From the IMG/VR virus record IMGVR_UViG_3300045988_080466: a DNA stretch of 64,000 nt, one strand, 5' to 3'. The notes beneath the pieces were generated by a model that was not told where the DNA came from, did no database searches, and was given only the letters and a program-made list of their open reading frames with translations. This stretch comes from a virus. Numbering within the stretch: the stretch's first letter is position 1; each line of letters opens with the position of its first letter. This document shows, one piece after another, positions 3,001 through 39,601 of this stretch. A program made the translations under genes and the position numbers.

Positions 3001-3578
3001 CTTGGCCTGATACTACAAATGCTGGAACAATGTATCCACCGAACCTATTCTCAACATTGAGAAATTTAACTTCTATTAAGTTGTTATTCTCATACAATGA
3101 GATACCTTCTAATATTGCTCTATCTTCTTCACTATTTGTGAATAATTTGAGTCTTTCAGACTTAGATAGAACTTGGATGTGTTGCAGATGGTATTCAGAT
3201 GCTACATTGCCTGCACAAGTCCCTACTGATTTATTTTCTAGAAATGGAGCTTTAGGAAACCTAAGAGGTACATTCTCAATTTCATCTCTGAGTGTAGATA
3301 GTAGTGATAATGTAACAGCTAGTTTATATACTTATGGAAGAAACCCAATAAAGATAGACAGTACGTTAGTAACAAGAGCAAAACATGCAAATGTATCAAA
3401 CGTATCTTATATGTTTGGTGGTTGTAAGACAACTCAAGGAACTGTACCTGAGCTATGGAATTGGCTAAACAAACTATCTCTTAAATATAGAACACAACCA
3501 TTCTATCAAATGTCTAAAGCATTAATAACAAATAGTGCTGGCATACCTGCAGAATGGTCAATAGGTATGAATGATTAA
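3..3578 (+). CDS. BspA-like leucine-rich-repeat (DUF285-type) adhesin / tail-associated protein; 5' end lies outside the window
   Basis: Frame 3 is open from nt 3, with no stop before the TTG at 114 used by the ORF track. The upstream residues NISGSCVTSLSLPNASLASLNITNSDVEKITL continue the same L/I/N/S/C-rich periodicity as FTGCKKLKTVIIDSCTKIESLTLSSLSDLDSVTITGCPNLKSIVC. Later repeats carry the F-x-x-C-x-x-L and YMF-x-x-C signatures (FVGCSSLIRVF, FKYCGKVTTIDSLFWDCGDLTSIYF, FRGCTNLTEAP, FNDCTKLTNISYMFYNMSNV, NVSNVSYMFGGCKTT). Stop is TAA at 3576-3578. Confidence 0.7.
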   Translation, partial: NISGSCVTSLSLPNASLASLNITNSDVEKITLQSQPFLSSIDFTGCKKLKTVIIDSCTKIESLTLSSLSDLDSVTITGCPNLKSIVCTNNTALSVFNVSNSNNVETINLSNCNSRSLQIYIVGAAKIKTLNLSGTTTPEPIQLAQGLNTITSLDISNSSVSAFQFGNDPIPTYKGDNILDLSPFNLTSLSLRNAGLVKYIKFDNNKTKPFTVGNSFFVGCSSLIRVFGHLALSGQSIFSNCNKFFIHDMPDTIPTPMISPTEWFGPDTSTEDGKTQWKANTNLDTNFTISTTALNSVFSTTACTLYDVYYILNRCQNVTSLNGTFVACRQVTTSVPNSFNRNMFKYCGKVTTIDSLFWDCGDLTSIYFSPTHDDDGNITAYDGLFSPLVSCTNMNNSFQAGGQKYMDEYLFAPVNANGDTLKLTSISWAIYHETFIKNASAPKEEILSSDYIYAKASKLLKYLPELNNIGYLYASTYSKIEFDLDTYTENGKTASYCPLFYNNSKLVSISQCFNCYGKGSLLNVFGGDEVFNSMRNNFPQSLQYIRGSFNCAKEGSNTVTWPIKNSMFSKIKSTIKFIGPVDEGNFTTSAGSFAGAGIVKSYIPDLVGDKFPYDVFRGCTNLTEAPAFFARMAFPSDTTTEIPGTTFNDCTKLTNISYMFYNMSNVKYSLTSRGFKNCRIVNATACFMEDTSNYCKIGKVPYGLFYQETDVRKQFIGWNHTDAAASGITETFGITESGEWIPDDELPTQLPATKTYEFTRKQLNRTIRTLDGCLRGFRSPDASQYLIDWGNLEYGDSGDLVAINEDYNPVEFIKNSAYDPREQVPNPAYNPENPGAEPEFIPNPNRDIRRVLKNTNYDPYEEMWNYWAVDGRVGMKGIIENSNLYRDVLNGTVTTLPTTIPDTMEDENNSRSCITPASYTAKRLVMNYICPPDLFRYCENSAALNVNNIFMQSGISSDVTGNYQSYGLCGRIPPRLFEPISNVTKLEGIFYYCFMVNPYTWPDTTNAGTMYPPNLFSTLRNLTSIKLLFSYNEIPSNIALSSSLFVNNLSLSDLDRTWMCCRWYSDATLPAQVPTDLFSRNGALGNLRGTFSISSLSVDSSDNVTASLYTYGRNPIKIDSTLVTRAKHANVSNVSYMFGGCKTTQGTVPELWNWLNKLSLKYRTQPFYQMSKALITNSAGIPAEWSIGMND

Positions 3579-3598: not shown

Positions 3599-3862
3599 AT
3601 GTACGGATACGGAAAAGTAGCAAACAGAGAAGGAAAAATATCTTCTGTCCAAGTAAGTATCTTGCAGAATGTTCCTGCCGGAGATTTCTTCCCCGGTGTG
3701 ATATTTCTGATAAAGAATATTACTGATGATAATATAACAGCAGAGATTAGACCTGCAGGACAGGACAATTTCATAGAAACAGTACTATATCCCGGATGGA
3801 ACCCTGAGATGTGTGAAGAAATAAGAGACGCAGAAGAAGGAACATTACAATATGGGTACTAA
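3599..3862 (+). CDS. small hypothetical protein (87 aa)
   Basis: ATG-initiated ORF on the uniform coding strand. It fills the gap between two large genes and overlaps the next ATG (3852) by 11 nt. No recognisable motif. The antisense ORF 3514..3774 competes but is less plausible. Confidence 0.45.
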   Translation: MYGYGKVANREGKISSVQVSILQNVPAGDFFPGVIFLIKNITDDNITAEIRPAGQDNFIETVLYPGWNPEMCEEIRDAEEGTLQYGY

Positions 3863-6800
3863 TATTACTGGTATTGGTAATGCCAATGCCATAGGATTTA
3901 AGTCTAGAGTTACAGGTGGGGCATACTTCCCACCTGAACTTAAAGACGCTCTTGTAGGGGTGTGGTCAGCCTACGGTAAATCGAATGATAGTACTGACCG
4001 TAACATTATCAAGAATAAAATAAAAGATAAAGGCGGAGACTTTGAGCTGCTAAACTTTAACTACAAAGAAGGAAGTGGATATGGTAAGTATGGGACTGAT
4101 TTTCTAAATTGGAATGTTGAAACTTCATCAGTTACTGCATCTTCAAATAAGATAGAAGTCATTAAAGAAAGTAATATGTACAAGATGTACCGTTATTCAA
4201 GTATGACTAAAAATCTTCCCTCCTTTAAGGTAAAAATATCTAATCTGCAAAAAGGATATATAAGATACTATTATCGCAAGCAAACCGGAATCGAAGCATA
4301 TATTGATTTCCACCAAAATGGAATATATGAATTACCCGCATCCTATAAAGTAGATGAAGGAGGAACAGGAACAAATGGAGGATTTAACTCAAACGCAGCC
4401 GTCCTAAATGTGGGGGTGACTATTGAACAAATCCCAGAGTTTAAAGGAGCTGTTGTTACTGACGGAATTGATGATTTAATTATTTCCACAAAAACTGCGA
4501 CAGAGATGGGCATTACTAATGAGGTCACAGTGGTTAGTATGATTCACCAAATAGGAGGTATTAATTCTTCAGCTGTAAATTATGGTTACACTAATTATTT
4601 TAGAGGCATAAATCATAGTACATTAAGAAACAATGCAACAGGATTAAATAAAACTGGTATCTATGGTTATTCTGCAACTAATTATACTCCTACTATAATC
4701 AATAATATATTAGGGGACAAGAATGATTATACAACCAACAGTGCCGGATTTTCACAATCAACGTATAATAATGTTTTTAGTGTAGAAGGATATAAAGTAT
4801 CTAGTATGATTGCCGAAACTAGTCAAGTTGCTTGGTACTGGACATTTATAGCTAACAAAGTTCTTACAGAGGATGAAATTAATCTTGTTATCGAGAAATA
4901 TAACCTTGATAGACCTGGGGAAATAGTTACACCTCAAGTTTATTACAACATAAAGAAACAGAAGATTTCTAATGATAATCACTCTGCATTTGATGATAAA
5001 CTAATTGACTATTCTGGAAATGGTTATGATGCTAAGTTGTATAACTTTGGCTGGAAAGAAGATAGTGGAATTGGGAAATATGAAACTGATTTTACTGATT
5101 GGAAAAAGAGTTTTAAAGTAACATCTTTTGATAGTGAATCTATTAAGTTTACTAGCGATGTTTCTTGGGTATTACTGTATCATCCATCTAGTATTGGAGA
5201 AGATATTCCCTCTTTCAAAGTTCGTATAAAACTTTATGGAAAAGGCACTTTATATTATAACTATATAACTCAAGAAGGGAAATACACTAATGTAGCTGTA
5301 AAATCAGAGATTTTTGAAACACCGATTTGTTATAACACAAAATATACAGGTGAAAAGGGAGTAAACGTTGGATTTACTCTTGGCGTTATCTCTGGTGAAT
5401 GTAGTGGTACTATTACACAAATTCCAGAGTATGAAAATGCATTAGTATTAGATGGTGTAGACGATTATGGAAAAGTAACAGGACTTCCTATTTTAAAGGA
5501 TTATACCTTTTTGGTAGATAGACAAATAATAAATATTGGCGATGTGCAAAGAATAGTTGCTTCTAAATCTGAAAGTGCAACGGATACAGCTAAGCAAGGA
5601 GCATTTCTATTTGAATATTTAAGTAAAAATTCCATTAGTACTTGGAGCTATTATGAAAATAATCCTCTAGTAGCTAATGCTGACTTTAATAGGGATATAA
5701 GCTATCAATCAAAATATATTTACAATGGTAAAGAATTAACAATTGGAGGAGCTGGAGATAGTGATAAATTATGGCTAGGAACAATTCGAGATAATGATTC
5801 TCGTTTCTTTAATGGAGCTATTTATCTTCTTATGCTATTCCCTTACTCTATGAGTGAGTTCTTAATAGAAAGACAAATAGAGAAAGTAAAAGGAGGAACA
5901 TTATATCCTAATCAAGTTGAGTTTAGACCTATAATTCCAGAGGATGAAAACATTACTAAAATTGATTATTTTGTTGTTAATTCTGGTACATGGACAGTAA
6001 TTAAACCTGGAGACTATGTAGACGTAGGAGCTAGGATTGTTCTTAATGTATATACAAAACTTCCTTATAAAATAGCGGGAGCATCTTCAACAGCTTTTAC
6101 TGGTATGACTGTCGGACCTTCAACAGCATTAAATATATGGGATGTTAAGGGTTATATAAAGGATAAGACTCCACAGAAAATCAAATTGACTCTTGCAGTT
6201 AATGAAGATATTGTTCAATGGAATCCTACAATTTCAGCTAATATTCCAGACTCTTACGATGCAGTAACAGAATGGTTTGCCAATGGTTGGGAGACTAAGA
6301 TTGCTGTAGGTGATTGGATTAAAAAGTCTGATAGAATATTCTTTAAATTAAAACTTAAAGAACCTCTACATGAAATAGGTAAAGTTACATTTGGTGGTTC
6401 TGAATGTCAGGCTACTAAAGCAAGTAATTGGTCAGAATCTAATAATCTATGGGAGATTGTAACATATTCTTCTGTTGGAGATTTATCGCAAGTATTTAAT
6501 GTACAAGTAGACGAGTACATCAGATACGAGGACATTGTACAGCCTTATCCAATTCTATTGAGATTCAATGATGAAAACGGTAATGGAGTATCTTGGGGAG
6601 GAAAGTTCAGAGTTGGTTCTACTATTACTAGAATAGGTAGTATTGCTGACCCTGAAAGCAATCTATTAAATGGTTTATATTCTATTTCAGGATTGTCTTT
6701 AAATGGTAAAGCTGTTACTAGTAGTACTAGTATCGTTGAAAAGCAAATGGTATTTAAAACTACTGCAACTTATCTTTTTGATAATAATGAACCTAAATGT

Positions 6801-9800
6801 ATTCTTTCTCCTAGACTATTGAGAATACCTAACTCTAGTTACAAGATTCTAAGACACATTCCCGATATATCCGGTCATGGTAATCATGGAGTTATTCATA
6901 ACTCGGCTTATGCAGGAATGAGTGGAGCGAATGGATATGGAACTAATCTAGGTAATTGGAGTATTAATAGTGCTAATACTGGTAAGATAATAACTCAAAG
7001 AGAAGAATATTTAGAATATGAAGTATTAAGTGCAGATAAGAATATATTATTTTATAATACAAAAATAAAAAATGATACATTTGTAATATATACTAGTGTT
7101 AGTACTAATATTGTATATTCAAAAGAATCTGATATTATTGCTAATATTCCTGCTAATACTCCTACTAAAGTAGTTTGTCCTAAAATTGGTACTATTCTGT
7201 TAAAAACAAATGAAACACCTACTGTTGGAAATATAATTACTGTTAAACAAGATGGAATATATGAAGGAGCATACTGTTTCGATGGCGTAGATGACTTTGT
7301 TATTATTCCTACTACGGTCGGTGGTAAGCAGGTGTTGATGAAGGTGAATTGGCAAAGTGATGTGGGAGCTGTGACACTATACGACCAAAGGCTTAATCTA
7401 TCTGATTATGAATTTGCTATCTATAACGGTAATAGAGACCTTGATGACAATCCTATTATGGCTTATCAGGGAAGAAACAATGGGCAAACATACATTGATG
7501 GAATCTTGAATAGTAATATTAAGGCTTCGGAATTGAAGGCTATTACTCATAATATAACTATTACAAATGAGTTAAGTTTGGGAACAAATAATACCTATCC
7601 TGTTATTGGTTCAACTAGGTCGAATACTCACTTCGCTCAAATGTCTCTCTATGACTTCATGCTCTTCGATGAAATCTCAACAGAAGCTAAGATTAAAGAG
7701 CTGAACGAGTATGTAGGAATAGAAGGAAATGTATTCGAGTTTAATCCTACGTTTACAATAGACCTTCCTATGGCAATTAAGTCTATAAAGGTATATCAAG
7801 GAGGAAATGAAATAAGTCCAGGTTATCTATATCCTAATAAAGATACTGAGTTTGAAGTATATGTATCGCTTAATGATGGTAAATATGCTGTTGATACTAT
7901 TACAGTAGACGGTGTAGAAATCACTAAGGATAGAGTAGTTGGAGAATATAACATATTTAAGTTTACTCTTAATGGTTCTTCTGAACAGAAGATTACAATC
8001 CATTCCTATGAATATATAATGTATGAGGATATTATACAGCCGTATCCAAGTTTTGTTAAGTTAGAAAATCTAGATAGAACTCATACTTATACTTGGGGAG
8101 ATAAACTAAGAATAGGAGATACTATTAGGTATAATTCTTCTAAAAATTTACTGGAGGGAGCTTATACTTTAAGGGGTCAACTAGAGTGTAACGGTGTATA
8201 TGTATTCGATAATAACCAACAAATCGTTGTTACTAAGGAGATGGTATTTGCTTGGTCACATAGTCCCGTTTGGACTATTGGGAACAGTGCTCCTAAATGT
8301 GTATTCTCTCCAAGTAAGTTAAGGATTCCAAATTCTAGCTACAAGTACTTAGGTTATATACCTGATATTTCTGGAAATGGAAACAATGGAACATTTACTA
8401 ACTTTGCTTTCTCTGGTATGTCTGGAGCTAACGGATATCTAGAAGATTTTACTATCATGAAAGACCATGGTACTAGTGGCATAGTTCGCACCGAGAGTAA
8501 GATATATCTTAATGAGTCGTTTAATTATAAAGAGGGATTTTGGCTAGGATATACAAACAATCCTTCCCCTGCTTATAAAGTTAAAGTATCTGGAATACCC
8601 GAAACTGGTATGCTTACATATACAGGAGGTATTTGGTTAAATCTAGTAAATGGAATAAACGAATTGCCTGCAAGAACAAATACTGCAGAAAATCACGGTT
8701 TTGTGGTTCAATCTCCAGGCCTAGACTGGTCAAAATTAGTTATTGAACAAATAGGAAACTATGAAGGTTCTATATGTTTTGACGGAATTGATGATTATGT
8801 AGATATTCCTTCCTTATCAATAGGAGGAAAGCAGGTATTAATGAAGACAAACTGGTTAAAATCTCCTACGTTATTGTATGACCAGAGAGCGTCGGGAAGC
8901 TTTGCTATTCTTACAACTAAGGAGGATGACGCAACTAATCCAAGAATAGCGTACCAAGCACGTAATCAAGATGGCAAGACTTACATAGATGGGATAGAGA
9001 ATAATTATATTGAAACTTACTCTCTAAAAGGTATAACACATAATATTACAGTGACAAACCCTTCGGCAGGAAGTGGAGTAGTACCTGTAATAGGTGCCAA
9101 TACTGGTAAGTCAAGCGGTTTTGCCAAAATGGCTCTTTATGATTTCATGTTGTTTGACGAGGTAAGTACTAACGAAGAAATAAAGCAACTCAATGATATA
9201 GTAGGAATTGAGGGAAATTATGTACAAAGACCTCCTTACTATTGGGACGCTTATGGCAAGACTAACTCTGATGAAGATAGGAGTACTATTCAACAAAGAG
9301 GAACAGCAGTAGGAGACTATGATTTAACTAATCATAATCATGCTTACGATAAAATGTCAGGTTATGGAGGTTATAATTTAGGTAGATTTGATAAGTCTTG
9401 GGCTAGTTCTAGTTCTTCTAATACTAGTATTAAAGTTGTTCAACGAAATCCTTATGATATTACTTTAAAGAAGTTAGGAGGAAATAGTGATTGGGAATTT
9501 AATAACACAGAATTAAAAATTATATCTAATCCTGTATCTGTTAAATTTAAATCTGATAAAAATATAAGATTTACGTGCGATTATCATTATTATCCTGTTG
9601 GAGAAAATAGTGAAGGTATTCCTTTAAGAATAACTTCTAAAGACTTAATTGCTAATGAAGATACCATTATCACAATTTCACCAATTAGTCAAGAGAATAT
9701 AGATAAATATAATATTGATGTAAATAGAGGATACTATCTTATTTATTTTCAATTATCATCTACTCTTGCAGTTAACGAAGAAGTAACTATCGAAATGCTT

Positions 9801-10334
9801 CCTCTTTATCCTAATGCTTTATTATATGATGGAGTAGATGATTATTCAGAAAACACTAGTATTCCGGCATTTACTGATTATACTTATATCATTAAGTATG
9901 AGGATTTTAATAATCCAAATACTGGAAGTTGTATTCAAAGAAAAGGCAGCATTAAGGCAGGTGGAGGAGCATTTGTTCAAGACCATATCTATAGAGGTAC
10001 AAAATATCAATATAATTTTGGAATTAGTAGCAATATTCATAAAGATGATTCCATCGCATTTTGTACTAGAACAAATTATAATGGCACTGCAATTCCGTCT
10101 GGAAACAATACTGATGATACAGGTTTTACTATCGGAAAATTCGATGGATATCGTAAAATGGTATTTTATAAAGAAATGTTGTATCCTAGGACCGTTAATA
10201 TGCTAACCATTAATATGATAAAGAATATGATGGCGGAAGATGGAATAATAGATATACAAGGTAAATTATTTACTGATAAATTTACAGGAGATTTTAATTT
10301 AGACTTTAATAAAGACTTTTTAATAGGTAACTAA
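3852..10334 (+). CDS. modular tail fibre/adhesin (2160 aa) with five LamG-like (concanavalin-type jelly-roll) modules
   Basis: There are five copies of the D-G-[VI]-D-D-[YFL] signature: VVTDGIDDLII, LVLDGVDDYGK, CFDGVDDFVII, CFDGIDDYVDI, LLYDGVDDYSE. Each is preceded by an N-[FH]-x-x-x-x-SG-x-G-x-Y/W segment (NFNYKEGSGYGKYGTDFLNW, NFGWKEDSGIGKYETDFTDW, NSAYAGMSGANGYGTNLGNW, NFAFSGMSGANGYLEDF, HNHAYDKMSGYGGYNLGRF). D-I-SG-[HN]-GN-[HN]-G motifs typical of LamG-domain phage fibre proteins are also present. ATG 3852, stop TAA. Confidence 0.75.
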   Translation: MGTNITGIGNANAIGFKSRVTGGAYFPPELKDALVGVWSAYGKSNDSTDRNIIKNKIKDKGGDFELLNFNYKEGSGYGKYGTDFLNWNVETSSVTASSNKIEVIKESNMYKMYRYSSMTKNLPSFKVKISNLQKGYIRYYYRKQTGIEAYIDFHQNGIYELPASYKVDEGGTGTNGGFNSNAAVLNVGVTIEQIPEFKGAVVTDGIDDLIISTKTATEMGITNEVTVVSMIHQIGGINSSAVNYGYTNYFRGINHSTLRNNATGLNKTGIYGYSATNYTPTIINNILGDKNDYTTNSAGFSQSTYNNVFSVEGYKVSSMIAETSQVAWYWTFIANKVLTEDEINLVIEKYNLDRPGEIVTPQVYYNIKKQKISNDNHSAFDDKLIDYSGNGYDAKLYNFGWKEDSGIGKYETDFTDWKKSFKVTSFDSESIKFTSDVSWVLLYHPSSIGEDIPSFKVRIKLYGKGTLYYNYITQEGKYTNVAVKSEIFETPICYNTKYTGEKGVNVGFTLGVISGECSGTITQIPEYENALVLDGVDDYGKVTGLPILKDYTFLVDRQIINIGDVQRIVASKSESATDTAKQGAFLFEYLSKNSISTWSYYENNPLVANADFNRDISYQSKYIYNGKELTIGGAGDSDKLWLGTIRDNDSRFFNGAIYLLMLFPYSMSEFLIERQIEKVKGGTLYPNQVEFRPIIPEDENITKIDYFVVNSGTWTVIKPGDYVDVGARIVLNVYTKLPYKIAGASSTAFTGMTVGPSTALNIWDVKGYIKDKTPQKIKLTLAVNEDIVQWNPTISANIPDSYDAVTEWFANGWETKIAVGDWIKKSDRIFFKLKLKEPLHEIGKVTFGGSECQATKASNWSESNNLWEIVTYSSVGDLSQVFNVQVDEYIRYEDIVQPYPILLRFNDENGNGVSWGGKFRVGSTITRIGSIADPESNLLNGLYSISGLSLNGKAVTSSTSIVEKQMVFKTTATYLFDNNEPKCILSPRLLRIPNSSYKILRHIPDISGHGNHGVIHNSAYAGMSGANGYGTNLGNWSINSANTGKIITQREEYLEYEVLSADKNILFYNTKIKNDTFVIYTSVSTNIVYSKESDIIANIPANTPTKVVCPKIGTILLKTNETPTVGNIITVKQDGIYEGAYCFDGVDDFVIIPTTVGGKQVLMKVNWQSDVGAVTLYDQRLNLSDYEFAIYNGNRDLDDNPIMAYQGRNNGQTYIDGILNSNIKASELKAITHNITITNELSLGTNNTYPVIGSTRSNTHFAQMSLYDFMLFDEISTEAKIKELNEYVGIEGNVFEFNPTFTIDLPMAIKSIKVYQGGNEISPGYLYPNKDTEFEVYVSLNDGKYAVDTITVDGVEITKDRVVGEYNIFKFTLNGSSEQKITIHSYEYIMYEDIIQPYPSFVKLENLDRTHTYTWGDKLRIGDTIRYNSSKNLLEGAYTLRGQLECNGVYVFDNNQQIVVTKEMVFAWSHSPVWTIGNSAPKCVFSPSKLRIPNSSYKYLGYIPDISGNGNNGTFTNFAFSGMSGANGYLEDFTIMKDHGTSGIVRTESKIYLNESFNYKEGFWLGYTNNPSPAYKVKVSGIPETGMLTYTGGIWLNLVNGINELPARTNTAENHGFVVQSPGLDWSKLVIEQIGNYEGSICFDGIDDYVDIPSLSIGGKQVLMKTNWLKSPTLLYDQRASGSFAILTTKEDDATNPRIAYQARNQDGKTYIDGIENNYIETYSLKGITHNITVTNPSAGSGVVPVIGANTGKSSGFAKMALYDFMLFDEVSTNEEIKQLNDIVGIEGNYVQRPPYYWDAYGKTNSDEDRSTIQQRGTAVGDYDLTNHNHAYDKMSGYGGYNLGRFDKSWASSSSSNTSIKVVQRNPYDITLKKLGGNSDWEFNNTELKIISNPVSVKFKSDKNIRFTCDYHYYPVGENSEGIPLRITSKDLIANEDTIITISPISQENIDKYNIDVNRGYYLIYFQLSSTLAVNEEVTIEMLPLYPNALLYDGVDDYSENTSIPAFTDYTYIIKYEDFNNPNTGSCIQRKGSIKAGGGAFVQDHIYRGTKYQYNFGISSNIHKDDSIAFCTRTNYNGTAIPSGNNTDDTGFTIGKFDGYRKMVFYKEMLYPRTVNMLTINMIKNMMAEDGIIDIQGKLFTDKFTGDFNLDFNKDFLIGN

Positions 10335-10336
10335 CA

Positions 10337-12364
10337 ATGGCAAATTGGAGTAATTTAAAAACAGCAATATCAAATGTTGTTAAAAGTAACGGAATCCAAG
10401 GGATTACCGGAGATTCACTACAATCTGTAATGTTAAATATGGTTACAAAACTAGGAGAGAATTATATGTTTGCAGGGGTAGCTACCCCTGCTACAACTCC
10501 TGGGACTCCAGATGGTAATGTATTCTATATTACTACACAAGCTGGAACTTATGCCAACTTTAATAATACAGTAGTGGCAGATGGAGAACTAGCAATTCTT
10601 ATGTGGAATGGTGCTTGGACAAAACAGAGTATGGCAATAGCCACTCAAGCAAAGATGGAAGAAATTGACCAACATGTAACGGAAGTTGATGCTAAACTTA
10701 ATGAAATGCAAAAAGGTATGGAAGATGTATATGCCTATGGAGTCGAATGGGATTCTACTGTGGCAGACCCTACTCTCACAAGAATTGGGAATCTTACTCT
10801 TCATAAATCGTTACCTATTCAGTCTCAATTAAAAGGCTGCGTAGCTAACGGAGGAGTAATCAATTATTATCTTCATCCAGATGATTGGTCAAAGAAAGAA
10901 GATGGCACACCATCAGTATTAGATGGAACTGACGGAACTGTCAGAGTTAAAGTACCTCGATTCTGGGGAAAATCTGGAGTTGTAGGAACAAAAAGATGGG
11001 TTAAGATTTCTACTGTATGTATTGATGATACTTGGACAGAGATTCCAGCAATGTTAATAGATGCATATAGGTCTACAACAGATAACACTGTAACAGCAAC
11101 ACCTAAGTTGGTATCAGTTGTGAATACTACTGCTGCATTTAGAGGTGGAGGAAATAGAACAGCTTATGATACTTATTTAGAAACAGACCCAGTAAGAACA
11201 GATTTAGGAAAACCAAGAACAGCAATGACTAGAGCAGTTGCACGTACTTGGGCAACAAACGCGGGTTCAGAACTACTGAACTACGAATACTACAAATGGA
11301 TAATGTTTTGGTTACCTGTGATTGAGTACGCTACATTTAATATGCAAGCTAACTTCAATTCAGATTTAACTTCCGAAGGATTTCATCAAGGAGGATTAAG
11401 CGCAGGTGTAACAAACATGTCAAATTGGGAGTTTTACAATGGAAATTATTCAGTATGTCCTTGCGGATATGCCAATGAATTAGGAAATTTTACAGGAGCT
11501 AAGGTTATTCCTCAAGCTGATTGGGTTTATGAATCCACAGGTTTAACTAATATGGCTTCTTATTCAAGAGATACTGCTCAAGCAGATATGACAGCAGAAA
11601 CAAATAAAGTCACAATTACAAACGTTAAAGGTACTAATAGATATATGTATAGAACTTGGGGTTACCAAAATGGAGAAACCGTTTATACTATATCAGGATT
11701 AGCAGAGGGACAAGATGTAATATTCTATGTAGGAGGTACAACAGTAGCAACAGCTACAGCCGATGGAGATATTACAGTAAATTGGCCTACAAACAATCTG
11801 GGAGATAGATGCATTAAATCATCTTTTACTGGAAGTTGTAATATTGTGATTTCTATTAAGAGTGCATCTAACGTAAATGTAACAGTTAGCCGTCCAGCTA
11901 TGAGTATTGCAAGATATAGAGGATTTGAAAATATCTTTGGAGACCTGTGGACAAATATGGAAGGCATAATTATACAAGGTTATACAGACGAAGGAACAAG
12001 CACTTATAACTGGAAAAATGTATATACAACTACTAATCCAGAAAATTATGGAGAAACAGAAACTCAAAAAGCTAAAATGAAATTAATCTCTAGTAGAGAA
12101 ATTCATGCAGATGGATATACTAAGGATTTTGACCTCCAAACAACAGGAGAAATAGTACCATGTGCTGTTGGTGGTGGAAGTACTACCTATATGTGCGACT
12201 ATCATTACACTGGTAATAAAGACGCAAGTCTAAGGACACTCTTGCTTGGCGGCCGCGCTGATTCTGGCGGTGCTTCCGGCCCTGGTTGCTTCTATTCTGG
12301 TGTTGGGGTCGGCCTTTCCAGCGCCGCTGTGGGTTTCCGTACTCTAAATAAAATTGAAAAATAA
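10337..12364 (+). CDS. DGR target protein: tail fibre / receptor-binding protein with a C-terminal C-type-lectin-like variable region
   Basis: 675-aa ORF starting 3 nt after the preceding fibre gene. Its last ~40 codons (LLLGGRADSGGASGPGCFYSGVGVGLSSAAVGFRTLNKIEK) contain the VR and end with the GFR motif common at the end of CLec-fold DGR variable regions. The VR is a conspicuous GC-rich island in an AT-rich gene. Confidence 0.85.
   Translation: MANWSNLKTAISNVVKSNGIQGITGDSLQSVMLNMVTKLGENYMFAGVATPATTPGTPDGNVFYITTQAGTYANFNNTVVADGELAILMWNGAWTKQSMAIATQAKMEEIDQHVTEVDAKLNEMQKGMEDVYAYGVEWDSTVADPTLTRIGNLTLHKSLPIQSQLKGCVANGGVINYYLHPDDWSKKEDGTPSVLDGTDGTVRVKVPRFWGKSGVVGTKRWVKISTVCIDDTWTEIPAMLIDAYRSTTDNTVTATPKLVSVVNTTAAFRGGGNRTAYDTYLETDPVRTDLGKPRTAMTRAVARTWATNAGSELLNYEYYKWIMFWLPVIEYATFNMQANFNSDLTSEGFHQGGLSAGVTNMSNWEFYNGNYSVCPCGYANELGNFTGAKVIPQADWVYESTGLTNMASYSRDTAQADMTAETNKVTITNVKGTNRYMYRTWGYQNGETVYTISGLAEGQDVIFYVGGTTVATATADGDITVNWPTNNLGDRCIKSSFTGSCNIVISIKSASNVNVTVSRPAMSIARYRGFENIFGDLWTNMEGIIIQGYTDEGTSTYNWKNVYTTTNPENYGETETQKAKMKLISSREIHADGYTKDFDLQTTGEIVPCAVGGGSTTYMCDYHYTGNKDASLRTLLLGGRADSGGASGPGCFYSGVGVGLSSAAVGFRTLNKIEK
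12239..12337 (+). repeat. DGR variable repeat (VR), 99 nt, 33 in-frame codons at the 3' end of the target gene
   Basis: Gapless alignment to 12451-12549 at a constant offset of 212 nt, checked base by base. There are 28 mismatches and all lie where the TR has A. No mismatch lies where the TR has C, G or T. Position 12239 is codon position 1 of ORF 10337..12364. Confidence 0.92.
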
Positions 12365-12450
12365 TTTCTCATAACATATAACAGATAGGGCACTATTTAC
12401 CTTTTTTACCGGGTTGCAAGGGCAGCGAAAGTTTACTGTGAAAAACAAAA

Positions 12451-12549
12451 CTCTTACTTAGCAGCAACGCTAATAATGGCAGTAATTCCAGCCCTAGTTA
12501 CTTCAATTCTAATAATGGAGTCAGCAATTCCAGCACCAATGTAGGTTTA
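12451..12549 (+). repeat. DGR template repeat (TR), non-coding, adenine-rich
   Basis: In the VR frame the sequence reads ctc tta ctt agc agc aac gct aat aat ggc agt aat tcc agc cct agt tac ttc aat tct aat aat gga gtc agc aat tcc agc acc aat gta ggt tta. It has 31 adenines, nine AAY codons and seven AGY codons. It sits in the 330-nt non-coding gap between the target stop and the RT start. Confidence 0.92.
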
Positions 12550-12694
12550 TTATATATTTTGATTTTGATAATTTTGTTTTTATTATTTTGTCTAAATAGT
12601 GTCCTTGCCTCTTGGCAAAAAATAACGTAGTATTTAATATAACTGGTGTTAGTAGGTTAATTCTCGAACACTCCTTGCATAAATATATAAGACT

Positions 12695-13939
12695 TTGAAA
12701 AGAATAGGATATTTGCATGAGCAGGTATGTAGCCTGTCTAATATAGAACTTGCTGATAGAAAAGCAAGAAGACACAAATCAGTCAGATGGGGAATCCTGA
12801 AACACGATAAGCATCATGAGAGGGAAAATGAAAAGTTGGCAACCGTTTTGAAGAACTTGACATATCACACTTCAAAATATAGCACGTTTAAAATCTATGA
12901 GCCTAAGGAGAGATTAATCTTTAGGCTTCCATATTATCCTGATAGAATTACGCATCATGCGATAATGAATATAACAGAACCGATATGGGTAAATATATTT
13001 ATCAAACATACATATTCTTGTATAAAAGACAGAGGAATACATGATGTTGCAAAAGACTTAAAGTACGTTTTGCAAAAATATCCAGAAGAAACTAAGTATT
13101 GTTTGAAAATTGATGTGAAGAAATTTTATCCGTCTATTAACCATGACATACTGTACGAAATACTCCAAAAGAAAATAAAAGACCCTAAATTGTTGAGTCT
13201 ACTAAAGGAGATAATATATTCGGCAGACGGAGTACCCATTGGAAACTATTTGTCTCAATTCTTTGCAAATTTATATCTTGCTTATTTTGACCATTGGGTC
13301 AAAGAAGAGCTTAAATGTAAATTCTATTTCAGATATGCAGATGATATAGTAGTATTAAGTGACAATAAAGAATTTTTGAGAACAGTTCTATTGTCAATGA
13401 AATTATATCTGCGAAATGTCTTAAAATTAGAACTTAAACAAAATTATCAAATTTTTCCCGTAAACAGTAGAGGAATAGACTTTGTAGGTTACAAGTTTTT
13501 CCATACTCATGTACTGCTCAGAAAATCTATCAAAGTTAGATTATTCAAGTTAATTAAAGGGTACAAGGATAAGAAAATTGATAGAAACGAGCTAAGAAGG
13601 AGAATGCAATCGTATTTTGGATGGTTAAAGTTCTGTAATTCTAAAAATCTACTCCATAAAATTCAGTTAGAGACTGGATTGAGATTTTCTAACTGGAATG
13701 GGAAGAAGGTAAATATTTCAAGATTCTATGGTAAGTATATTCATATAGTTGACATCATATTGTATAGTAATAGATCCAGAGTCAACTTTGTATATAATTA
13801 TAAGTCATATTATTTTGAGAGTAAGAATAAACGATTGCTTTATTCTATACGTAGATATTCATTACCTGTAAATTTTAAAATAACACCATATGTTAGACCC
13901 AAGAAGAATAGAAGCAAACCTGCAACCCGAACCGATTGA
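12695..13939 (+). CDS. DGR-type reverse transcriptase (414 aa) with a ~90-aa basic C-terminal extension
   Basis: Motifs seen: YEPKERLIFRLPYYPDRITHHAIMN (RT motifs 1-2), CLKIDVKKFYPSINH (motif 3), PIGNYLSQFFANLYL (the [ILV]GxxxSQ motif that distinguishes DGR RTs from group II intron RTs) and YFRYADDIVVL (YxDD catalytic box). The thumb region ends near GWLKFCNSKNLLHKIQ. There is no in-frame ATG near the 5' end; an in-frame stop at 12653-12655 leaves TTG at 12695 as the best start. Stop is TGA. Confidence 0.9.
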   Translation: MKRIGYLHEQVCSLSNIELADRKARRHKSVRWGILKHDKHHERENEKLATVLKNLTYHTSKYSTFKIYEPKERLIFRLPYYPDRITHHAIMNITEPIWVNIFIKHTYSCIKDRGIHDVAKDLKYVLQKYPEETKYCLKIDVKKFYPSINHDILYEILQKKIKDPKLLSLLKEIIYSADGVPIGNYLSQFFANLYLAYFDHWVKEELKCKFYFRYADDIVVLSDNKEFLRTVLLSMKLYLRNVLKLELKQNYQIFPVNSRGIDFVGYKFFHTHVLLRKSIKVRLFKLIKGYKDKKIDRNELRRRMQSYFGWLKFCNSKNLLHKIQLETGLRFSNWNGKKVNISRFYGKYIHIVDIILYSNRSRVNFVYNYKSYYFESKNKRLLYSIRRYSLPVNFKITPYVRPKKNRSKPATRTD

Positions 13940-14264
13940 ATTGCTTGGAAATGGTACATATTACTATAACTATGATATTAAATCAGAAATAGTATACGTT
14001 CCTCACATGGACGGAAGTACAACGGAAGAAATTAGATGGAATTACATTCAGATACATTTAAGTGGAACACCAGAATATAAGGCATGTGCTAGAGCTATTA
14101 TTAGACAATATATTGATGAAGAATCAGAGTTCTCCATAATTAATGACTTTAATGCACACCAATTAGGAATTAGAAAAGATGAAAAAGCATACTCTGAATA
14201 CATAGAGTATATTAATTTAGTTTCAGAAATCAAATCAAAAATTAAGTCGGACTTTAATAAATAA
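13890..14264 (+). CDS. hypothetical protein (124 aa), overlaps the RT 3' end by 50 nt
   Basis: ATG start on the coding strand. The protein is acidic, with a Tyr-rich beta-looking N-terminal half and a helical C-terminal half. No recognisable motif and not Avd-like by composition. Confidence 0.5.
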   Translation: MLDPRRIEANLQPEPIELLGNGTYYYNYDIKSEIVYVPHMDGSTTEEIRWNYIQIHLSGTPEYKACARAIIRQYIDEESEFSIINDFNAHQLGIRKDEKAYSEYIEYINLVSEIKSKIKSDFNK

Positions 14265-17184: not shown

Positions 17185-20100
17185 ATGGAAAACGTTAGAG
17201 TAGACTCTCTCTTGGGAAACAAAAAAGTAATAGTTGGAAATCCCTATTCTGACATTGTACTAGAAACTCTAGGTAAAGTATATATAAAGTCAGGAAGAAA
17301 TTGTAAACTATTGGATGATGTTATAAAAGAATTAGCCACAATTACTGAGAAACCTCAGGAAGAAGTGTATGCTAAGACTATCATAGTAAATAGCGTCGAT
17401 GAGCTAGAGTCTCTCGATTATCCGGGAGATGGCTATTTAATTTACAATTCTCTTAATAAGTCTTTATATATCTCATATGAAGATAAATACATAGCTTTAA
17501 TTGAATCTGTTGCAGATACGTCAGAGAACTATGTAAAGAAAACAGGAGATTCAATGTCTGGGCAGCTGGAAATAACAGTGGATGCTTTTCCACCTCTTAT
17601 TGTTCATTCTAAAAAGTTAGTTAGTAATTTTAATGCCAATTACCTTGAAGGTTATGCAGCAAAGGATTTAGCTAAGAAGAAAGTTGATGAAATTATTTCT
17701 GGAGACTGGACGTTTACTGGAAGCAATATATCTAAAGCAAATTGGAGATTTTACAGAGACATAATAGTCGACGGAAGTATAACTTCTCCATTTTTCTCAT
17801 CTGGATTCTCGGGCTCTGGTTGGAGAATTGACGCAACAACAAATACCCTTACCATCGACTACTTGGTAGTAAGAAAAGCCATGCAAGTATATGAAATGGT
17901 GGTAAATAAAATTACAGCAACTAACGGTTCTCTTTGGGTATCTAATGCAAGCAAAGTAGAAAACTTTGTCTTAGCTTATGAAACTACTACAACAGAGTTC
18001 CTAAACGAATTTAATGAAGCATATAAGAACGCTTCTGGCGGAACAGATTTTACAGAACTGGACGACCTTGCTCGGTCACTACTCACTTCATTACTGTCCC
18101 AACGGACTGATATTATCTTTACTGATAAAAATGTGAGGGCTTATATGGTAGGAGACTCTTCGTGGCAATGTCCGGCTATTTTGACCCATATAACAGATGC
18201 CTATGCATTGGCAAATTCTACACTGTTTACAAACATAAATCAACTATGGGATAAGTCGTTCTTAGATAGCATCAACATAGAAGACCCTCAAACTCCAGAA
18301 ACACTGGCAGTCAATAATTCGGCTCAAGCAATTGACCTATTTAGTGAGTCTGGGCCCGAATCTTATATGGATATTGTATCAGATGATAACAAATCCATTA
18401 TTAAGAAACCGCTGTATTATAGTTATTTCTATGGTACAGAGAATATCTATGTAGTTGATTTTGACGATGATGAAATCCCAGTCTTTAAACCGGGAGACAT
18501 TGTTAGATGTCAAAAATGGGACAATCAAAATATTAAATATTATGATGCCATAGTACTTGCTCCAATAGGATTACATTCTTTCGCTATTCAATTAGCTAAA
18601 TCTGTGTTTGATAAATATACAGAAGTATCCTATGACGAGAAGGGAAACATATCTGAAATCGTAGAGAAATATAATGATAATCTTTATGATAGAACTGACT
18701 GGACTCCATCTGATGATGATTTAGATTATGAAGGAGAGCCAGTCCAAGAAGAAGAAATAAAAAAGAAGCTGGCAACAGTAGAAATAGGAGATAGTTTAGT
18801 ACAAGTTGGAAATATAAAACCTGACTCTGGAAGACAAAATGCTATTTATCTAACTTCTTCTGACGACCAAGCACCTTATATAAATATACTATCAGATTTA
18901 AATAGACCTGACTATTCTGTACTTTATAAGATTCCTAAATACGATGAAGAGGGAAATCCTATTACTAAAAAGGATGAAGAAGGAAACTTTGTAGAATACG
19001 AATTTGAATATACAAAAACAACTAAAGTAAGAATAGGAAATCTTGGAGGAATTATTGATTATACATTCCCTGCTGATAAACAGCCAAGAGGATATGGCCT
19101 TTATGGACAGAATGTGTATCTTACTGGTAACTTTTATTTGAATAATGGAAAATCAGTAGTAGATGTCTCACAAGATGGAGTATTTCTTAAATACAAAGAA
19201 GCTGGATTATCTATTGCTGATGACCCTAAAACAGGTGACCCTATAATCTCTTTGGAAGCTAACAAGGTATGGATTGGAGATTCCAAAGGACAAATCGGAA
19301 CTTTGTTTAAAGTAGAAGATGGTAAAGCATATATAAACACTGACTTTATTAAAGCCCAAAAGATTGAGGTGCAGGAAATATGGAATTATTCTTTTGATGA
19401 AACTACATCTCAGCAAGTTGAATTACCACTATTTGAGGGGACTTATACTCCAGTTATGTATGAAAGTAGTATAGGAACTATGACTCCGGACCCTCCTTAT
19501 GGAATGGCAGATTCATCAGCATGGACGGGAACAATATCTAAACATGACGGAAGTGGAGTATTTAAAGATTCATCATTATATCCAGGTTCAGCCTGCTTTA
19601 TGGAGTCAGTGAACGGAGAACAAGTTCACATAATGACCCCAATATTATCTTTAAAAAATGGAACTTTAGACGGAAAATTATCTTACTGTAACATTGGAGT
19701 AAATATGGGAGATTTCATTGGAGAAGGCATGGGTGAAATAAAGGTTACAGCTCATAGTGTAGATACAGGCGAATCTTGGGATGTTCCATTCAAAATGGCT
19801 AGTAGAGGAACCTTAGACTATGAATTAAGTGCGATAGAAACTACTGCTGCTACTAATAATTTAATATTTGCTATATCATTGATTCCAGCTTCAAAGGAAA
19901 CTGCACGAAGAATAATAGTAAACATATCAGTTAGTTATTACTACCACGAAGGAGCATTGAACTGGGCTTTATGGAAAAATGGGTCTGGTAGTTTAGCGAG
20001 AGAAAAAATCAACTGGAATAAAGATGGAGAACTTACTGTAAATGGTGACTTTAGGTCTTCCAATGGCCAAACTACCATTTTAATGGGAAATAATTCTAAA

Positions 20101-20592
20101 TCAGCATATTTGAGTATGTTTTCTAATGCTACTGAAGAGCATCCATTATTATATATAAGATATAGAAATGTGGGTTCTGGAAATTCTGTAACTGTGGAAG
20201 TCGATAGTGAGTATACTCATGATGATATATATTATTCAAGAGCAAGATTAACTTGTGAAGGTTTAACTTTTGGATATACACAAAAAGGATATTTAGATTC
20301 TATTATTACATCAGGAATGGGATATACGTATATATCTATGGATAAATATAATGGGTTCCAGATGTCTAATTCAAATTTTAGCTTTGCTGCAGCTCCTGTA
20401 GTTCAGGGTGTCAGTATTGTTATGGGAGGAAAGGCATTTACTATTAGACCTGATGGAGGAGGGATTTGCTTCAACTATGGTGCTTATCCTGGCACCGGCG
20501 GTCATGCTTGGCCTACTAGTATAGACCAAGTTAGTGTTGGGGGAGTATATATTCATACTTCCGATGGAAGTTTACACGTAAAACAATCATGA
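17185..20592 (+). CDS. tail fibre / tail spike protein (1135 aa)
   Basis: It contains YVKKTGDSMSGQLEI ... NANYLEGYAAKDLAKKKVDEIISGDWTFTG, the K-x-GD-x-M-[ST]-G-x-L and L-x-G motif pair widespread near the N-terminus of phage tail fibre proteins. Large size and position in the fibre block agree. Confidence 0.7.
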   Translation: MENVRVDSLLGNKKVIVGNPYSDIVLETLGKVYIKSGRNCKLLDDVIKELATITEKPQEEVYAKTIIVNSVDELESLDYPGDGYLIYNSLNKSLYISYEDKYIALIESVADTSENYVKKTGDSMSGQLEITVDAFPPLIVHSKKLVSNFNANYLEGYAAKDLAKKKVDEIISGDWTFTGSNISKANWRFYRDIIVDGSITSPFFSSGFSGSGWRIDATTNTLTIDYLVVRKAMQVYEMVVNKITATNGSLWVSNASKVENFVLAYETTTTEFLNEFNEAYKNASGGTDFTELDDLARSLLTSLLSQRTDIIFTDKNVRAYMVGDSSWQCPAILTHITDAYALANSTLFTNINQLWDKSFLDSINIEDPQTPETLAVNNSAQAIDLFSESGPESYMDIVSDDNKSIIKKPLYYSYFYGTENIYVVDFDDDEIPVFKPGDIVRCQKWDNQNIKYYDAIVLAPIGLHSFAIQLAKSVFDKYTEVSYDEKGNISEIVEKYNDNLYDRTDWTPSDDDLDYEGEPVQEEEIKKKLATVEIGDSLVQVGNIKPDSGRQNAIYLTSSDDQAPYINILSDLNRPDYSVLYKIPKYDEEGNPITKKDEEGNFVEYEFEYTKTTKVRIGNLGGIIDYTFPADKQPRGYGLYGQNVYLTGNFYLNNGKSVVDVSQDGVFLKYKEAGLSIADDPKTGDPIISLEANKVWIGDSKGQIGTLFKVEDGKAYINTDFIKAQKIEVQEIWNYSFDETTSQQVELPLFEGTYTPVMYESSIGTMTPDPPYGMADSSAWTGTISKHDGSGVFKDSSLYPGSACFMESVNGEQVHIMTPILSLKNGTLDGKLSYCNIGVNMGDFIGEGMGEIKVTAHSVDTGESWDVPFKMASRGTLDYELSAIETTAATNNLIFAISLIPASKETARRIIVNISVSYYYHEGALNWALWKNGSGSLAREKINWNKDGELTVNGDFRSSNGQTTILMGNNSKSAYLSMFSNATEEHPLLYIRYRNVGSGNSVTVEVDSEYTHDDIYYSRARLTCEGLTFGYTQKGYLDSIITSGMGYTYISMDKYNGFQMSNSNFSFAAAPVVQGVSIVMGGKAFTIRPDGGGICFNYGAYPGTGGHAWPTSIDQVSVGGVYIHTSDGSLHVKQS

Positions 20593-20897
20593 AATTAAAT
20601 GTAAAAGAACGAGTGGCAATATTACAAATGCTTCCAGAAACTGGAAGTCTTGTAGAAATGGTAGATATAATGGAAATTGTGAAAAAGGTAAGATTAGAAG
20701 AGGAAGAAAAGAACAACATAGAGTTTAAAGAAACTAAGAATTCTTTATCTTGGAACGCAGTTAAAGATTTAGGAAAGGATATTGAATTTAAACATGAAGA
20801 AATATCTATTTTAAAAGCTGCTGTGAGAAGACTTGACGAAGAGAAAAGAATCAATGTATCCAATCTCGATATCTGCTTAAAAATAAATAGTTTATGA
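20589..20897 (+). CDS. hypothetical protein (102 aa), translationally coupled between fibre and lysin
   Basis: ATGA overlaps at both ends (20589-20592 and 20894-20897). It is acidic and helical with no hydrophobic segment, so it is not a holin. Confidence 0.55.
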   Translation: MKLNVKERVAILQMLPETGSLVEMVDIMEIVKKVRLEEEEKNNIEFKETKNSLSWNAVKDLGKDIEFKHEEISILKAAVRRLDEEKRINVSNLDICLKINSL

Positions 20898-21484
20898 AAA
20901 TTTTACTAGACAACGGTCACGGAGAGAATACTCCCGGAAAGAGAAGTCCAGATGGCAAACTTAGAGAGTATCTTTATGCAAGAGAGATAGCTTCTATGGT
21001 TTACGATGAACTTTATAATAGAGATTATGATGTCGAACTTCTTGTTCCAGAGACAACTGATATTTCCCTTTCAGAAAGATGTAAACGAGCTAATAAGTTT
21101 GCTAAAGAATTAGGAAATAAAAATGTCTTGTTAGTGTCTATTCATTGTAATGCTGCTGGTAATGGCAGTGCATGGATGGGTGCTAAAGGATGGAGTATCT
21201 TTGTTTCAAATAATGCTTCTACTAATAGTAAATTACTAGCTGACTGTTTGTATGATGCAGCTGAACAGCAAAAACTTAGATTAAGAACCGAAAGACCTGG
21301 ACAGAAATACTGGCAACAGAGCCTTGCTATATGCAGAGATACTAACTGCCCAGCGGTTTTAACAGAAAACTTGTTTCAAGATAATAAAGAAGATGTGGAA
21401 TTTCTTCTTAGTAAGGAGGGAAAGGAAGCTATCGCTAAACTTCACGTAGACGGAATCATCAGATACATTTCCAAAATTTCATAG
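20894..21484 (+). CDS. N-acetylmuramoyl-L-alanine amidase (Amidase_3-type lysin)
   Basis: Motifs LLDNGHGENTPGKRSP, LVSIHCNAAGNG and VLTENLFQDNKEDVEFL match the GHG / SIHxNA / E-N-x-F-x-x-N zinc-amidase pattern of PF01520-family cell-wall amidases. Confidence 0.85.
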   Translation: MKILLDNGHGENTPGKRSPDGKLREYLYAREIASMVYDELYNRDYDVELLVPETTDISLSERCKRANKFAKELGNKNVLLVSIHCNAAGNGSAWMGAKGWSIFVSNNASTNSKLLADCLYDAAEQQKLRLRTERPGQKYWQQSLAICRDTNCPAVLTENLFQDNKEDVEFLLSKEGKEAIAKLHVDGIIRYISKIS

Positions 21485-39023: not shown

Positions 39024-39601
39024 AAATAGAAATAGGAGATAAAGAATATAACGTAGAGGTTGCAAGAACCGAGGAAGAGAAGGTTAAAGGCCTACAAGAA
39101 AAGGAGTCTTTAGGAGAAGATGAGGGGATGTTATTTGTGTATGACGAACCTCAAGAAATCGCCTTTTGGATGAAAGATACTGCAATTCCGTTGGACATAG
39201 TATTTATGGATGAAGATGGAGAGGTAATATCAGTTAAACAAGGACAGCCCTACGATGAAACTTTATTAGAAGAAGATGGAGTAATGTATGTTCTTGAAGT
39301 TAATCAGAACTCGGGAATCCAACCGGGCGATGAACTCGATATAGAAGATGACGATGATGACAAACAGCCAGTTATGAAAGTGCTGGCTCCAGACGGTTCC
39401 ACTCAAATGGAACTTGAAGGTGGAGAGAGAATTTTTAGTAGAAAAAATACTAAAACACTTATCAAAATGGCTAAACGAGCATATTCTTCGGAATTAGATA
39501 AGGATTATAAAGCCTTAGGAAAGAAAGCTTTTAAATACTTACATATACAGGACACAAATACTCCAGAATACGTAGATACTCCAAAGAGTAAAGAAGATTA
39601 A
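39020..39601 (+). CDS. DUF192-domain protein (193 aa)
   Basis: ARTEEEKVKGLQEKESLGEDEGMLFVYDEPQEIAFWMKDTAIPLDIVFMDEDGEVISV matches the DUF192/COG1430 pattern (GLM-like, G-M-L-F, F-W-M-K-[DN]-T, P-L-D-I-x-F). ATGA overlap with the upstream gene. Confidence 0.75.
   Translation: MKIEIGDKEYNVEVARTEEEKVKGLQEKESLGEDEGMLFVYDEPQEIAFWMKDTAIPLDIVFMDEDGEVISVKQGQPYDETLLEEDGVMYVLEVNQNSGIQPGDELDIEDDDDDKQPVMKVLAPDGSTQMELEGGERIFSRKNTKTLIKMAKRAYSSELDKDYKALGKKAFKYLHIQDTNTPEYVDTPKSKED

Follow-up and report, generated by a model that had tools for sequence, protein, structure and literature searches.

An active diversity-generating retroelement (DGR) of the kind that lacks Avd is very probably present, within the block of structural genes of a crAss-like phage that is best assigned to the Zeta type, in the 64,000-nucleotide stretch of viral DNA recorded in IMG/VR as IMGVR_UViG_3300045988_080466 (the whole of this stretch is called the window here). 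The element is laid out in the order target gene, variable repeat (VR), template repeat (TR), spacer RNA and reverse transcriptase (RT), with every component on the plus strand. It is directly supported by a repeat pair that differs only at adenines, an RT of the DGR clade, a target of the lectin type, the flow of information from TR to VR, and the covariation of two long-range RNA duplexes. A first-pass annotation, made from the sequence alone, had called the DGR complete. That description holds for the RT, TR, VR and target, all of which are present; it does not extend to Avd, nor to an initiation of mutagenic homing (IMH) site and hairpin of the BPP-1 type, the lack of which is normal for the lineage.

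The variable and template repeats

The VR (12239..12337) occupies codons 635-667 of the 675-codon target gene, and the non-coding TR (12451..12549) lies in the same orientation within the 330-nucleotide gap between the target and RT open reading frames (ORFs). The ungapped 99-nucleotide alignment of the two that had been reported earlier was recomputed and contains no indels. Base-by-base comparison likewise confirmed 28 mismatches, every one of them at a TR adenine; the 68 non-adenine positions are free of mismatches, and three of the 31 TR adenines (12473, 12506 and 12532) are unchanged in VR. The hypergeometric probability that 28 of 28 mismatches would fall on 31 adenine sites is about 1e-21. 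Changes from TR to VR are mostly A to G (18), with six A to C and four A to T. The VR had also been described as a GC-rich island in an AT-rich gene, and indeed G+C makes up 63.6% of it, compared with 36.8% of the remainder of the target gene and 39.4% of TR. Two details of the first-pass annotation need correction: VR does not comprise the last 33 codons of the gene, since eight more (RTLNKIEK) follow it, and it does not end in VGFR, since the repeat stops at VGF (codon 667) and R668 lies beyond it. A search of both strands of the window for an extra copy of the repeat found none.

Ten codons of TR, read in the VR frame, are of the form AAY (Y being a pyrimidine), and no stop codon can be created by any A-to-N change in TR. 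The theoretical repertoire of TR is 4.6e18 DNA variants, or 4e16 protein variants. A sequence preference is apparent in the outcome of mutagenesis when the window is considered together with 40 related TR/VR pairs (L008-L086). Adenines followed by G in TR almost always appear as G in VR, and the first positions of AAY codons show a near-uniform outcome of bases. Selection on the protein cannot explain the change of AG to GG, because the bias persists at fourfold-degenerate third codon positions, where G was found 83 times, A three times, and C and T not at all. The pattern fits the "template re-use" bias, governed by the 3' neighbor, that was recently shown for the Bordetella RT (PMC12875486), and it is much stronger here.

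The reverse transcriptase

The RT gene (12695..13939) encodes 414 residues and begins with TTG; at the same NTGAAA position, relatives start with TTG, ATG or GTG. TR ends 145 nucleotides upstream of it. The motifs PIGNYLSQ (of the GxxxSQ form) and YADD, which had been noted in the ORF adjacent to the repeats, are both present in the protein, which matches Pfam RVT_1 (E=7.6e-18) and phrog_1423 (E=1.9e-113). In a search of all PDB sequences the Bordetella enzyme bRT (8ub7, E=4.2e-47, residues 5-326) ranked first, and retron-type and group II intron RTs in the PDB reach only E=3e-13 or worse. The grouping with the DGR class that had been predicted is thereby borne out; judged by its sequence, the protein is a DGR-clade enzyme, with much greater similarity to the Bordetella DGR RT than to the RTs of group II introns. 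Its identity to the enzymes of crAssphage LMMB and of cr7_1 is 55-57% (for LMMB, 55% over 99% of the length). An exact-sequence look-up of the RT returned no match, probably since gene callers had picked another start.

Residues 327-414 form a C-terminal extension of about 88 residues past the end of Brt, common to the LMMB and cr7_1 enzymes and not found in RTs of the cr52_1 type. The idea that this extension is a universal substitute for Avd was rejected, as the RTs of cr52_1, cr60_1 and cr6_1 are short (78% query cover).

Activity across natural strains

Activity was assessed across independent metagenomic contigs, in place of the read pile-up proposed by the first-pass annotation, and adenine-restricted variation was seen among them. 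An exact 44-nucleotide probe from TR recovered six IMG/VR contigs, four of which carry both repeats. The flanks in these four are 99% identical to the window and the TRs are identical or differ by one base, yet the VRs are just 80-87% identical to one another. With the window included, 23 of the 25 variable VR columns are TR-adenine columns, and one of the two others is a C-to-T change that occurs in both the TR and the VR of a single contig.

A wider subset of 16 strains, with RTs 80-100% identical, shows the same restriction: 392 of 536 adenine sites are changed (73%), as against 16 of 1147 non-adenine sites (1.4%). Each VR tracks its own TR at the one to 11 positions where the TRs differ, with zero to two mismatches to the cognate TR at these positions and four to nine to the TR of the window. 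No two VRs in the subset are the same, and all 17 of the 17 VRs compared are distinct. On the protein side, a homologue of the target (88% identical) heads a 90%-identity cluster of 1680 sequences in which hypervariable columns are confined to residues 640-664; among 14 members of the cluster, columns outside this segment have two or three alleles (five in one column), and the AAY-encoded columns inside it have five to eight. Information has passed from TR to VR across natural strains, and the element looks active.

Of 68 related loci, 65 have a VR/TR pair at the corresponding position. The other three (L033, L040 and L087) are RT loci with no detectable VR/TR pair upstream, only about 970 nucleotides of upstream sequence being available for L040; they may be decayed cassettes or may have targets elsewhere. 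A further locus, L082 (IMGVR_UViG_3300035647_000071), looks like a recombinant cassette: the 5' arm of the duplex that brackets TR (see below) and the 5' part of TR are from one lineage, and the 3' end of TR and the spacer are from another. The bracketing duplex of this locus is reduced to 10 of 13 pairs, and its detectable match to VR is shortened.

The target tail fibre

The target gene (10337..12364) encodes a 675-residue tail-collar fibre or tail protein of the crAss type. It matches phrog_5302 ("tail protein", E=6e-81), and tblastn matches it to tail and tail-collar fibre proteins of the Crassvirales, including KP06_gp54 of p-crAssphage; homologous tail-collar fibre genes adjoin RTs in many Crassvirales genomes. 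An AlphaFold model of residues 125-675, built on a 91-sequence alignment that spans two subfamilies, has a mean predicted local distance difference test score (pLDDT) of 92.9 and a predicted template modelling score of 0.90. It replaced a first, full-length model from 38 sequences in which the lectin region scored only about 25-30 and gave weak matches to carbohydrate-binding modules (CBMs). When the later model was compared with 350,542 PDB chains by Foldseek, the top three matches were chains of the DGR variable protein TaqVP (5vf4; probability 0.97-0.98, E=5e-3), in agreement with the lectin-type tip that had been proposed. Comparison with BFVD gave template modelling scores of 0.7-0.8 to the tail proteins of cr7_1, cr85_1 and cr130_1, and the matches there include entries annotated as TvpA-like (Treponema variable protein 1-like, 5e-15) and FGE-like (7e-4). 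These models suggest, with moderate confidence, that the target ends in a C-type-lectin/FGE-like domain with VR at the C-terminal ligand-binding surface.

The predicted lectin-type domain is interrupted by a beta-sandwich (11495..11917, residues ~387-527) with pLDDT above 90 in both models. Its Foldseek matches, to CBM86, CBM6, CBM29 and a hyaluronan-binding module, are weak (E 2e-3 to 5e-2), and the inserted domain may bind carbohydrate as a second, non-variable glycan site. The tblastn matches to crAss homologues come in two pieces with part of the middle of the protein unmatched, and for tail-collar fibres of Alpha-crAss phages the match is limited to an N-terminal portion of the lectin domain (residues ~133-373).

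Three standard stop codons interrupt the reading frame of the annotated DGR target tail protein of cr130_1 (L088, 1893-3959), as would be expected if this phage recodes stop codons, and the protein was unusable as a query. The TR/VR pair of cr130_1 also contains non-adenine mismatches.

Conserved RNA elements around the template repeat

The RNA elements were examined in an alignment of 51 distinct sequences running from the end of VR to the start of RT. The first of them, duplex 1, joins a 5' arm (12388..12399) to a 3' arm (12593..12604) across TR. Five of its 12 pairs are changed on both sides among the 51 relatives, despite the mis-registration of 10 sequences by the aligner, and an anchored search found at least 13 distinct complementary pairs of arms. 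The duplex recurs with unrelated sequences in LMMB (13 of 13 pairs), cr7_1 (12 of 13) and cr130_1 (12 of 13). Directly 3' of it lie a 5-bp hairpin, UUGCC-UCUU-GGCAA, and a run of adenines (12605..12622); the hairpin is invariant or compensated (GC to AU in L086) throughout the alignment. A covarying 12-bp duplex followed at once by a hairpin and A run is the arrangement of the "cPRT Stop" of BPP-1, the upstream strand of which would have its analogue in the 5' arm. Such duplexes have been predicted in 207 of 278 Avd-containing DGRs (10.1101/2023.10.23.563531), and by analogy with BPP-1, duplex 1 may mark the point at which synthesis of complementary DNA (cDNA) stops.

Cryo-EM of the BPP-1 complex revealed the order "cPRT Stop", "Thumb Ring" and RT-binding stem (10.1101/2023.10.23.563531), and candidates for the second and third of these follow in the window. 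A conserved segment predicted to be unpaired (UAACGUAGUAUUUAAUAU, 12623..12640), within which AACGTAGTATTTAA is nearly invariant in alignments A2 and A3, would by its position be the analogue of the "Thumb Ring". The stem-loop at 12644..12675, with conserved UAGUAG and CGAA internal loops, is the positional analogue of the RT-binding stem; in the consensus fold of 17 relatives its changes are one-sided only (GU/GC/AU).

The same part of the spacer gives a sub-threshold match (12601-12695, E=0.001) to the Rfam motif RT-17 (RF03020; PMC5737381). The match is full-length (model positions 1-95), ends at the RT start codon, and shares with the motif the CCUUGCCUCNUGGCAAAA hairpin, which forms its first helix, and the UAGUAG...CGAA stem; neither long-range duplex is included in the Rfam model. 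The sequences immediately before the RT genes of LMMB (30.5 bits) and cr130_1 (35.5 bits) match RT-17 too. Of the RT motifs, Weinberg et al. (2017) assigned RT-10 alone to a DGR, offering a DGR role for the others as speculation (PMC5737381), and a search of the literature on RT-17 and on priming in Avd-less DGRs found nothing beyond that paper. The RNA map links an orphan Rfam motif to DGR spacers, and extends to the Avd-less DGRs of gut phages the "cPRT Stop" architecture that was defined in Avd-containing ones.

Folding of the whole region was no better than that of shuffled sequences (z=0.53), and the claims of RNA structure made here are therefore drawn from covariation only. A scan for sigma-70 promoters and terminators gave matches no commoner than expected by chance. 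In one relative, L016 (IMGVR_UViG_3300045988_051520), a 74-nucleotide segment that extends from the hairpin through the RT-17-like stem is duplicated in tandem, which doubles these spacer elements.

A candidate template:primer duplex

A second long-range pairing, duplex 2, joins the ten nucleotides directly 3' of the last mutagenized TR adenine (UUAUAUAUUU, 12550..12559), the proposed template strand, to a perfect complement that ends five nucleotides before the RT start codon (AAAUAUAUAA, 12681..12690), the proposed primer strand. This is the best match in the whole spacer. The pairing is kept with different sequences in eight further lineages (LMMB, cr7_1, cr130_1, L086, cr52_1, cr60_1, cr55_1 and cr6_1), and in LMMB it extends to 11 bp. 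It starts mostly 1-3 nucleotides past the last mutagenized adenine, or past the point where VR homology ends, the offset being +1 in the window and +5 in cr52_1 and cr60_1. Across lineages, cognate pairs have a mean energy of -6.7 kcal/mol and non-cognate pairs -2.8 kcal/mol, and none of 20000 permutations was as good as the cognate arrangement.

A priming role for duplex 2 is proposed by analogy with BPP-1, where TR117-129 pairs with Sp47-56 (A56); 12550-12559 and 12681-12690 would constitute a relocated template:primer duplex, with A12690 as the candidate priming nucleotide. This would place the primer strand at the spacer's 3' end, so that the two long-range pairings cross as a pseudoknot.

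Weighing of the alternatives

Several observations weigh against the interpretation given above. A Pfam scan of the small ORFs near the cassette found no homologue of Avd; the absence of Avd is the rule in DGRs of lineage 3 and in most Zeta DGRs (PMC7290462, PMC12386605). The homology of VR and TR ends at GGTTT(C/A), with no common GC-rich block past the last adenine that would serve as an IMH/IMH* pair, and no BPP-1-type hairpin or inverted repeat was found within 120 nucleotides 3' of VR; an atypical IMH has been noted in crAss DGRs (PMC7290462). The structural match to TaqVP misses an E-value of 1e-3, and profile searches of the target with Pfam, NCBIfam and PDB sequences returned no lectin or FGE family. 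The RT-17 match scores 29.0 bits against a gathering score of 40.4, and the spacer is not a certified member of that family. The strands of duplex 2 are AU-rich and do not vary among close relatives, so that its support comes from distant lineages only; it is interrupted by bulges in cr52_1 and cr60_1; and its pre-start motif could instead be a signal for translation or a promoter.

One alternative would be that the RT belongs to another retroelement or defense system (a retron, a group II intron, or Abi/DRT) and that the repeat pair is an unrelated duplication. In NCBIfam, models for group II introns, Drt3a and retrons are matched below threshold, and some relatives are labeled "retron-type" or "intron reverse transcriptase" in GenBank. 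All of these NCBIfam scores, however, are far below the cut-offs, and in the PDB search the E-value of bRT is better by 34 orders of magnitude than those of retron-type and group II intron RTs; the SQ motif is present, and no intron RNA, maturase or endonuclease domains were seen. A chance duplication cannot explain mismatches at adenines only together with a TR about 145 nucleotides upstream of the RT in 65 loci, and the probability left to this alternative is very small. It is also very unlikely that the element is a fossil, now silent, with the VR/TR differences as relics of past diversification, even though three related loci have no detectable repeat pair and the pair in cr130_1 has non-adenine mismatches. 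In the window, non-adenine mismatches are wholly lacking and the RT ORF is intact. The fossil reading is also disfavored because the comparison of contigs shows VR diversity between near-identical flanks and the copying of TR point variants into the cognate VR, with every VR compared being distinct. The preferred reading is an active DGR, and the remaining alternative concerns its RNA.

That alternative accepts the DGR but holds that 12550-12559 and 12681-12690 are not template and primer: the pre-start motif would be a signal for translation or transcription, and priming would take place at another site, for example immediately before the 3' arm (the situation in BPP-1), or by some other route. 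Neither of the two AU-rich segments varies in the close family, where counts of pairs are uninformative; the primer-side segment lies 0-6 nucleotides from the start codon, where translation signals are found; and the order of elements is unlike that of the only solved DGR ribonucleoprotein. Against this stand the complementarity retained by nine lineages of differing sequence, the start of the duplex, in most of them, within 1-3 nucleotides of the last mutagenized adenine or end of VR homology, and a cognate pairing that outdoes all 20000 permutations. Nor does the spacer, searched throughout, offer a comparable complement to the 3' end of TR before the 3' arm. The non-primer reading is a serious contender that falls somewhat short of an even chance. 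The proposal favored here, for which the prospects appear evenly balanced, is that Avd-less Crassvirales DGRs carry a rearranged form of the Bordetella RNA. It would keep the stop duplex, hairpin, single strand and RT-binding stem and lack the Avd-binding stem-loop; the primer strand would lie 0-6 nucleotides from the RT start, creating the pseudoknot; and synthesis at A12549 would be primed at or near A12690, with the loading of ribosomes onto the RT gene in competition.

Proposed mechanism and its relevance

The DGR may operate as follows. An RNA of about 12388-12695, with TR included, would be made. Duplex 1, with the adjacent hairpin and A run, would bracket TR and mark the stop of cDNA synthesis, and duplex 2 would bring the 3' end of the spacer beside the last TR adenine, so that cDNA would start at A12549. 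The RT would copy TR faithfully save at adenines, and replacement of VR by the cDNA would change as many as 22 codons at the lectin-type end of the fibre. A rewritten tip on a tail-collar fibre might in turn alter the binding range of the phage and allow it to switch receptors.

The element is a clean natural example of a DGR, with direct evidence of TR-to-VR copying and a repertoire of ~4e16 proteins. The RNA map is the only part that exceeds published descriptions, and it offers a specific, testable priming site. It is also relevant to the reconstitution of a minimal, two-component DGR (RT and RNA) for protein engineering.

Lineage and comparison with known DGRs

The most likely placement of the phage is in the Zeta group of crAss-like phages (proposed Echekviridae). 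The crAss-like origin given in the first-pass annotation is supported by the RT, the target homologues, the structural matches and a candidate major capsid protein (MCP; 22734-24155). The last of these shares 21-23% identity with crAss MCPs (E 1e-8 to 1e-5), matches the PHROG major head protein (E=7e-7), and is 78% identical to a protein of the unannotated 117-kb gut contig MT835470.1. The search with the RT yielded 343 confirmed relatives, and many of the best 80 of these, as well as target homologues, are on contigs of 180-190 kb; Zeta crAss-like phages have genomes of 145-192 kb (PMC7886860). The window yielded no gene for the terminase large subunit (TerL), and GenBank phages searched by megablast with the cassette gave no match.

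Novelty had been sought in the lineage context, and there the earlier view does not stand, as crAss-like phages of the Alpha, Delta, Epsilon and Zeta groups have already been reported to carry DGRs (PMC7290462, PMC11054128, PMC12386605). The order target, VR, TR, RT was described first in crAssphage LMMB (PMC7290462) and later in Epsilon phages (PMC11054128). A DGR of this kind is already known, because the same layout was published for the Zeta group in 2025, when DGRs were reported in 18 of 43 genomes, with GxxxSQ RTs, lectin-tipped tail-fibre targets, and no Avd save in two phages (PMC12386605). The DGRs of that report resemble the one in the window in having a tail-fibre target followed by VR, TR and RT, in lacking Avd, and in the GxxxSQ motif, the 414-residue RT and the C-terminal lectin-like domain. 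Their genomes are ~180-190 kb with ~34-35% G+C, the size of the contigs that carry relatives of the window. The RT of 414 residues, the longest in the group, occurs in three Zeta phages (ctoVY1, cthgQ11 and 3717_85572); these use amber suppression, whereas no recoding is evident in the window. The Zeta paper gives no account of RNA elements, of VR variation at the population level, or of the inserted beta-sandwich (PMC12386605).

LMMB, a member of the Intestiviridae, has the same gene order without Avd (lineage 3 of Wu et al.) and a homologous tail-collar fibre as target (PMC7290462). Like the window, it has the bracketing duplex, the hairpin, an RT-17-like element and a duplex between the TR flank and the pre-start segment. 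It differs in belonging to another family, in its genome of ~98 kb and in its 486-residue target, which has no inserted domain; it also possesses an identical 12-nucleotide IMH/IMH*, whereas homology in the window stops at the last adenine.

BPP-1, with its order Mtd, Avd, TR and Brt, shares with the window the adenine-specific transfer from TR to VR, a homologous RT and a lectin-type receptor-binding target. The logic of the RNA is also alike: a TR-flanking duplex, a stem-loop with adenosines, a single strand and then, ahead of the RT, a long stem that contains internal loops. The window, however, has no Avd, no Avd-binding stem-loop, no (G/C)14 IMH and no hairpin after VR; its RT bears the 88-residue C-terminal extension, and its spacer resembles Rfam RT-17 rather than RT-10 (PMC5737381). 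In the window the candidate primer strand occupies the 3' end of the spacer, and in BPP-1 the primer strand is found just 5' of a strand of the stop duplex; the two duplexes that are crossed in the window are nested in BPP-1. The DGR variable proteins TaqVP (5VF4) and TvpA (2Y3C), whose C-type-lectin folds have been solved, agree with the target in its predicted fold, in the GFR hallmark at the end of VR and in variable residues encoded by AAY; they show no detectable sequence similarity to it, and the target differs further in its fibre-type N-terminus and the domain inserted in its lectin fold.

Surroundings of the cassette

Three further giant ORFs flank the cassette: those at 114-3578 (1154 residues) and 3852-10334 (2160 residues) have no Pfam or PHROG match, and that at 17185-20592 (1135 residues) matches Phage_Tail_Tip and a tail-fibre PHROG. 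A second VR for the TR of the cassette was looked for in these three ORFs and none was found. The region 56000-64000 contains only short ORFs, mostly on the minus strand, which are not lengthened when TAG or TGA is read as sense; no tRNA genes were found in the whole window.

A 124-residue ORF (13890-14264, phrog_11557) overlaps the last 50 nucleotides of the RT gene, as does its counterpart in cr7_1. It was considered as a substitute for Avd and rejected, having no Pfam match and a homologue in IAS virus with no adjoining RT. Because that homologue stands without an RT beside it, the ORF is probably a backbone gene, on the upstream side of which the cassette was inserted. The structural block also includes an Amidase_3 protein (N-acetylmuramoyl-L-alanine amidase, 20894-21484), which is likely the endolysin, and a DUF192 protein (39020-39601).

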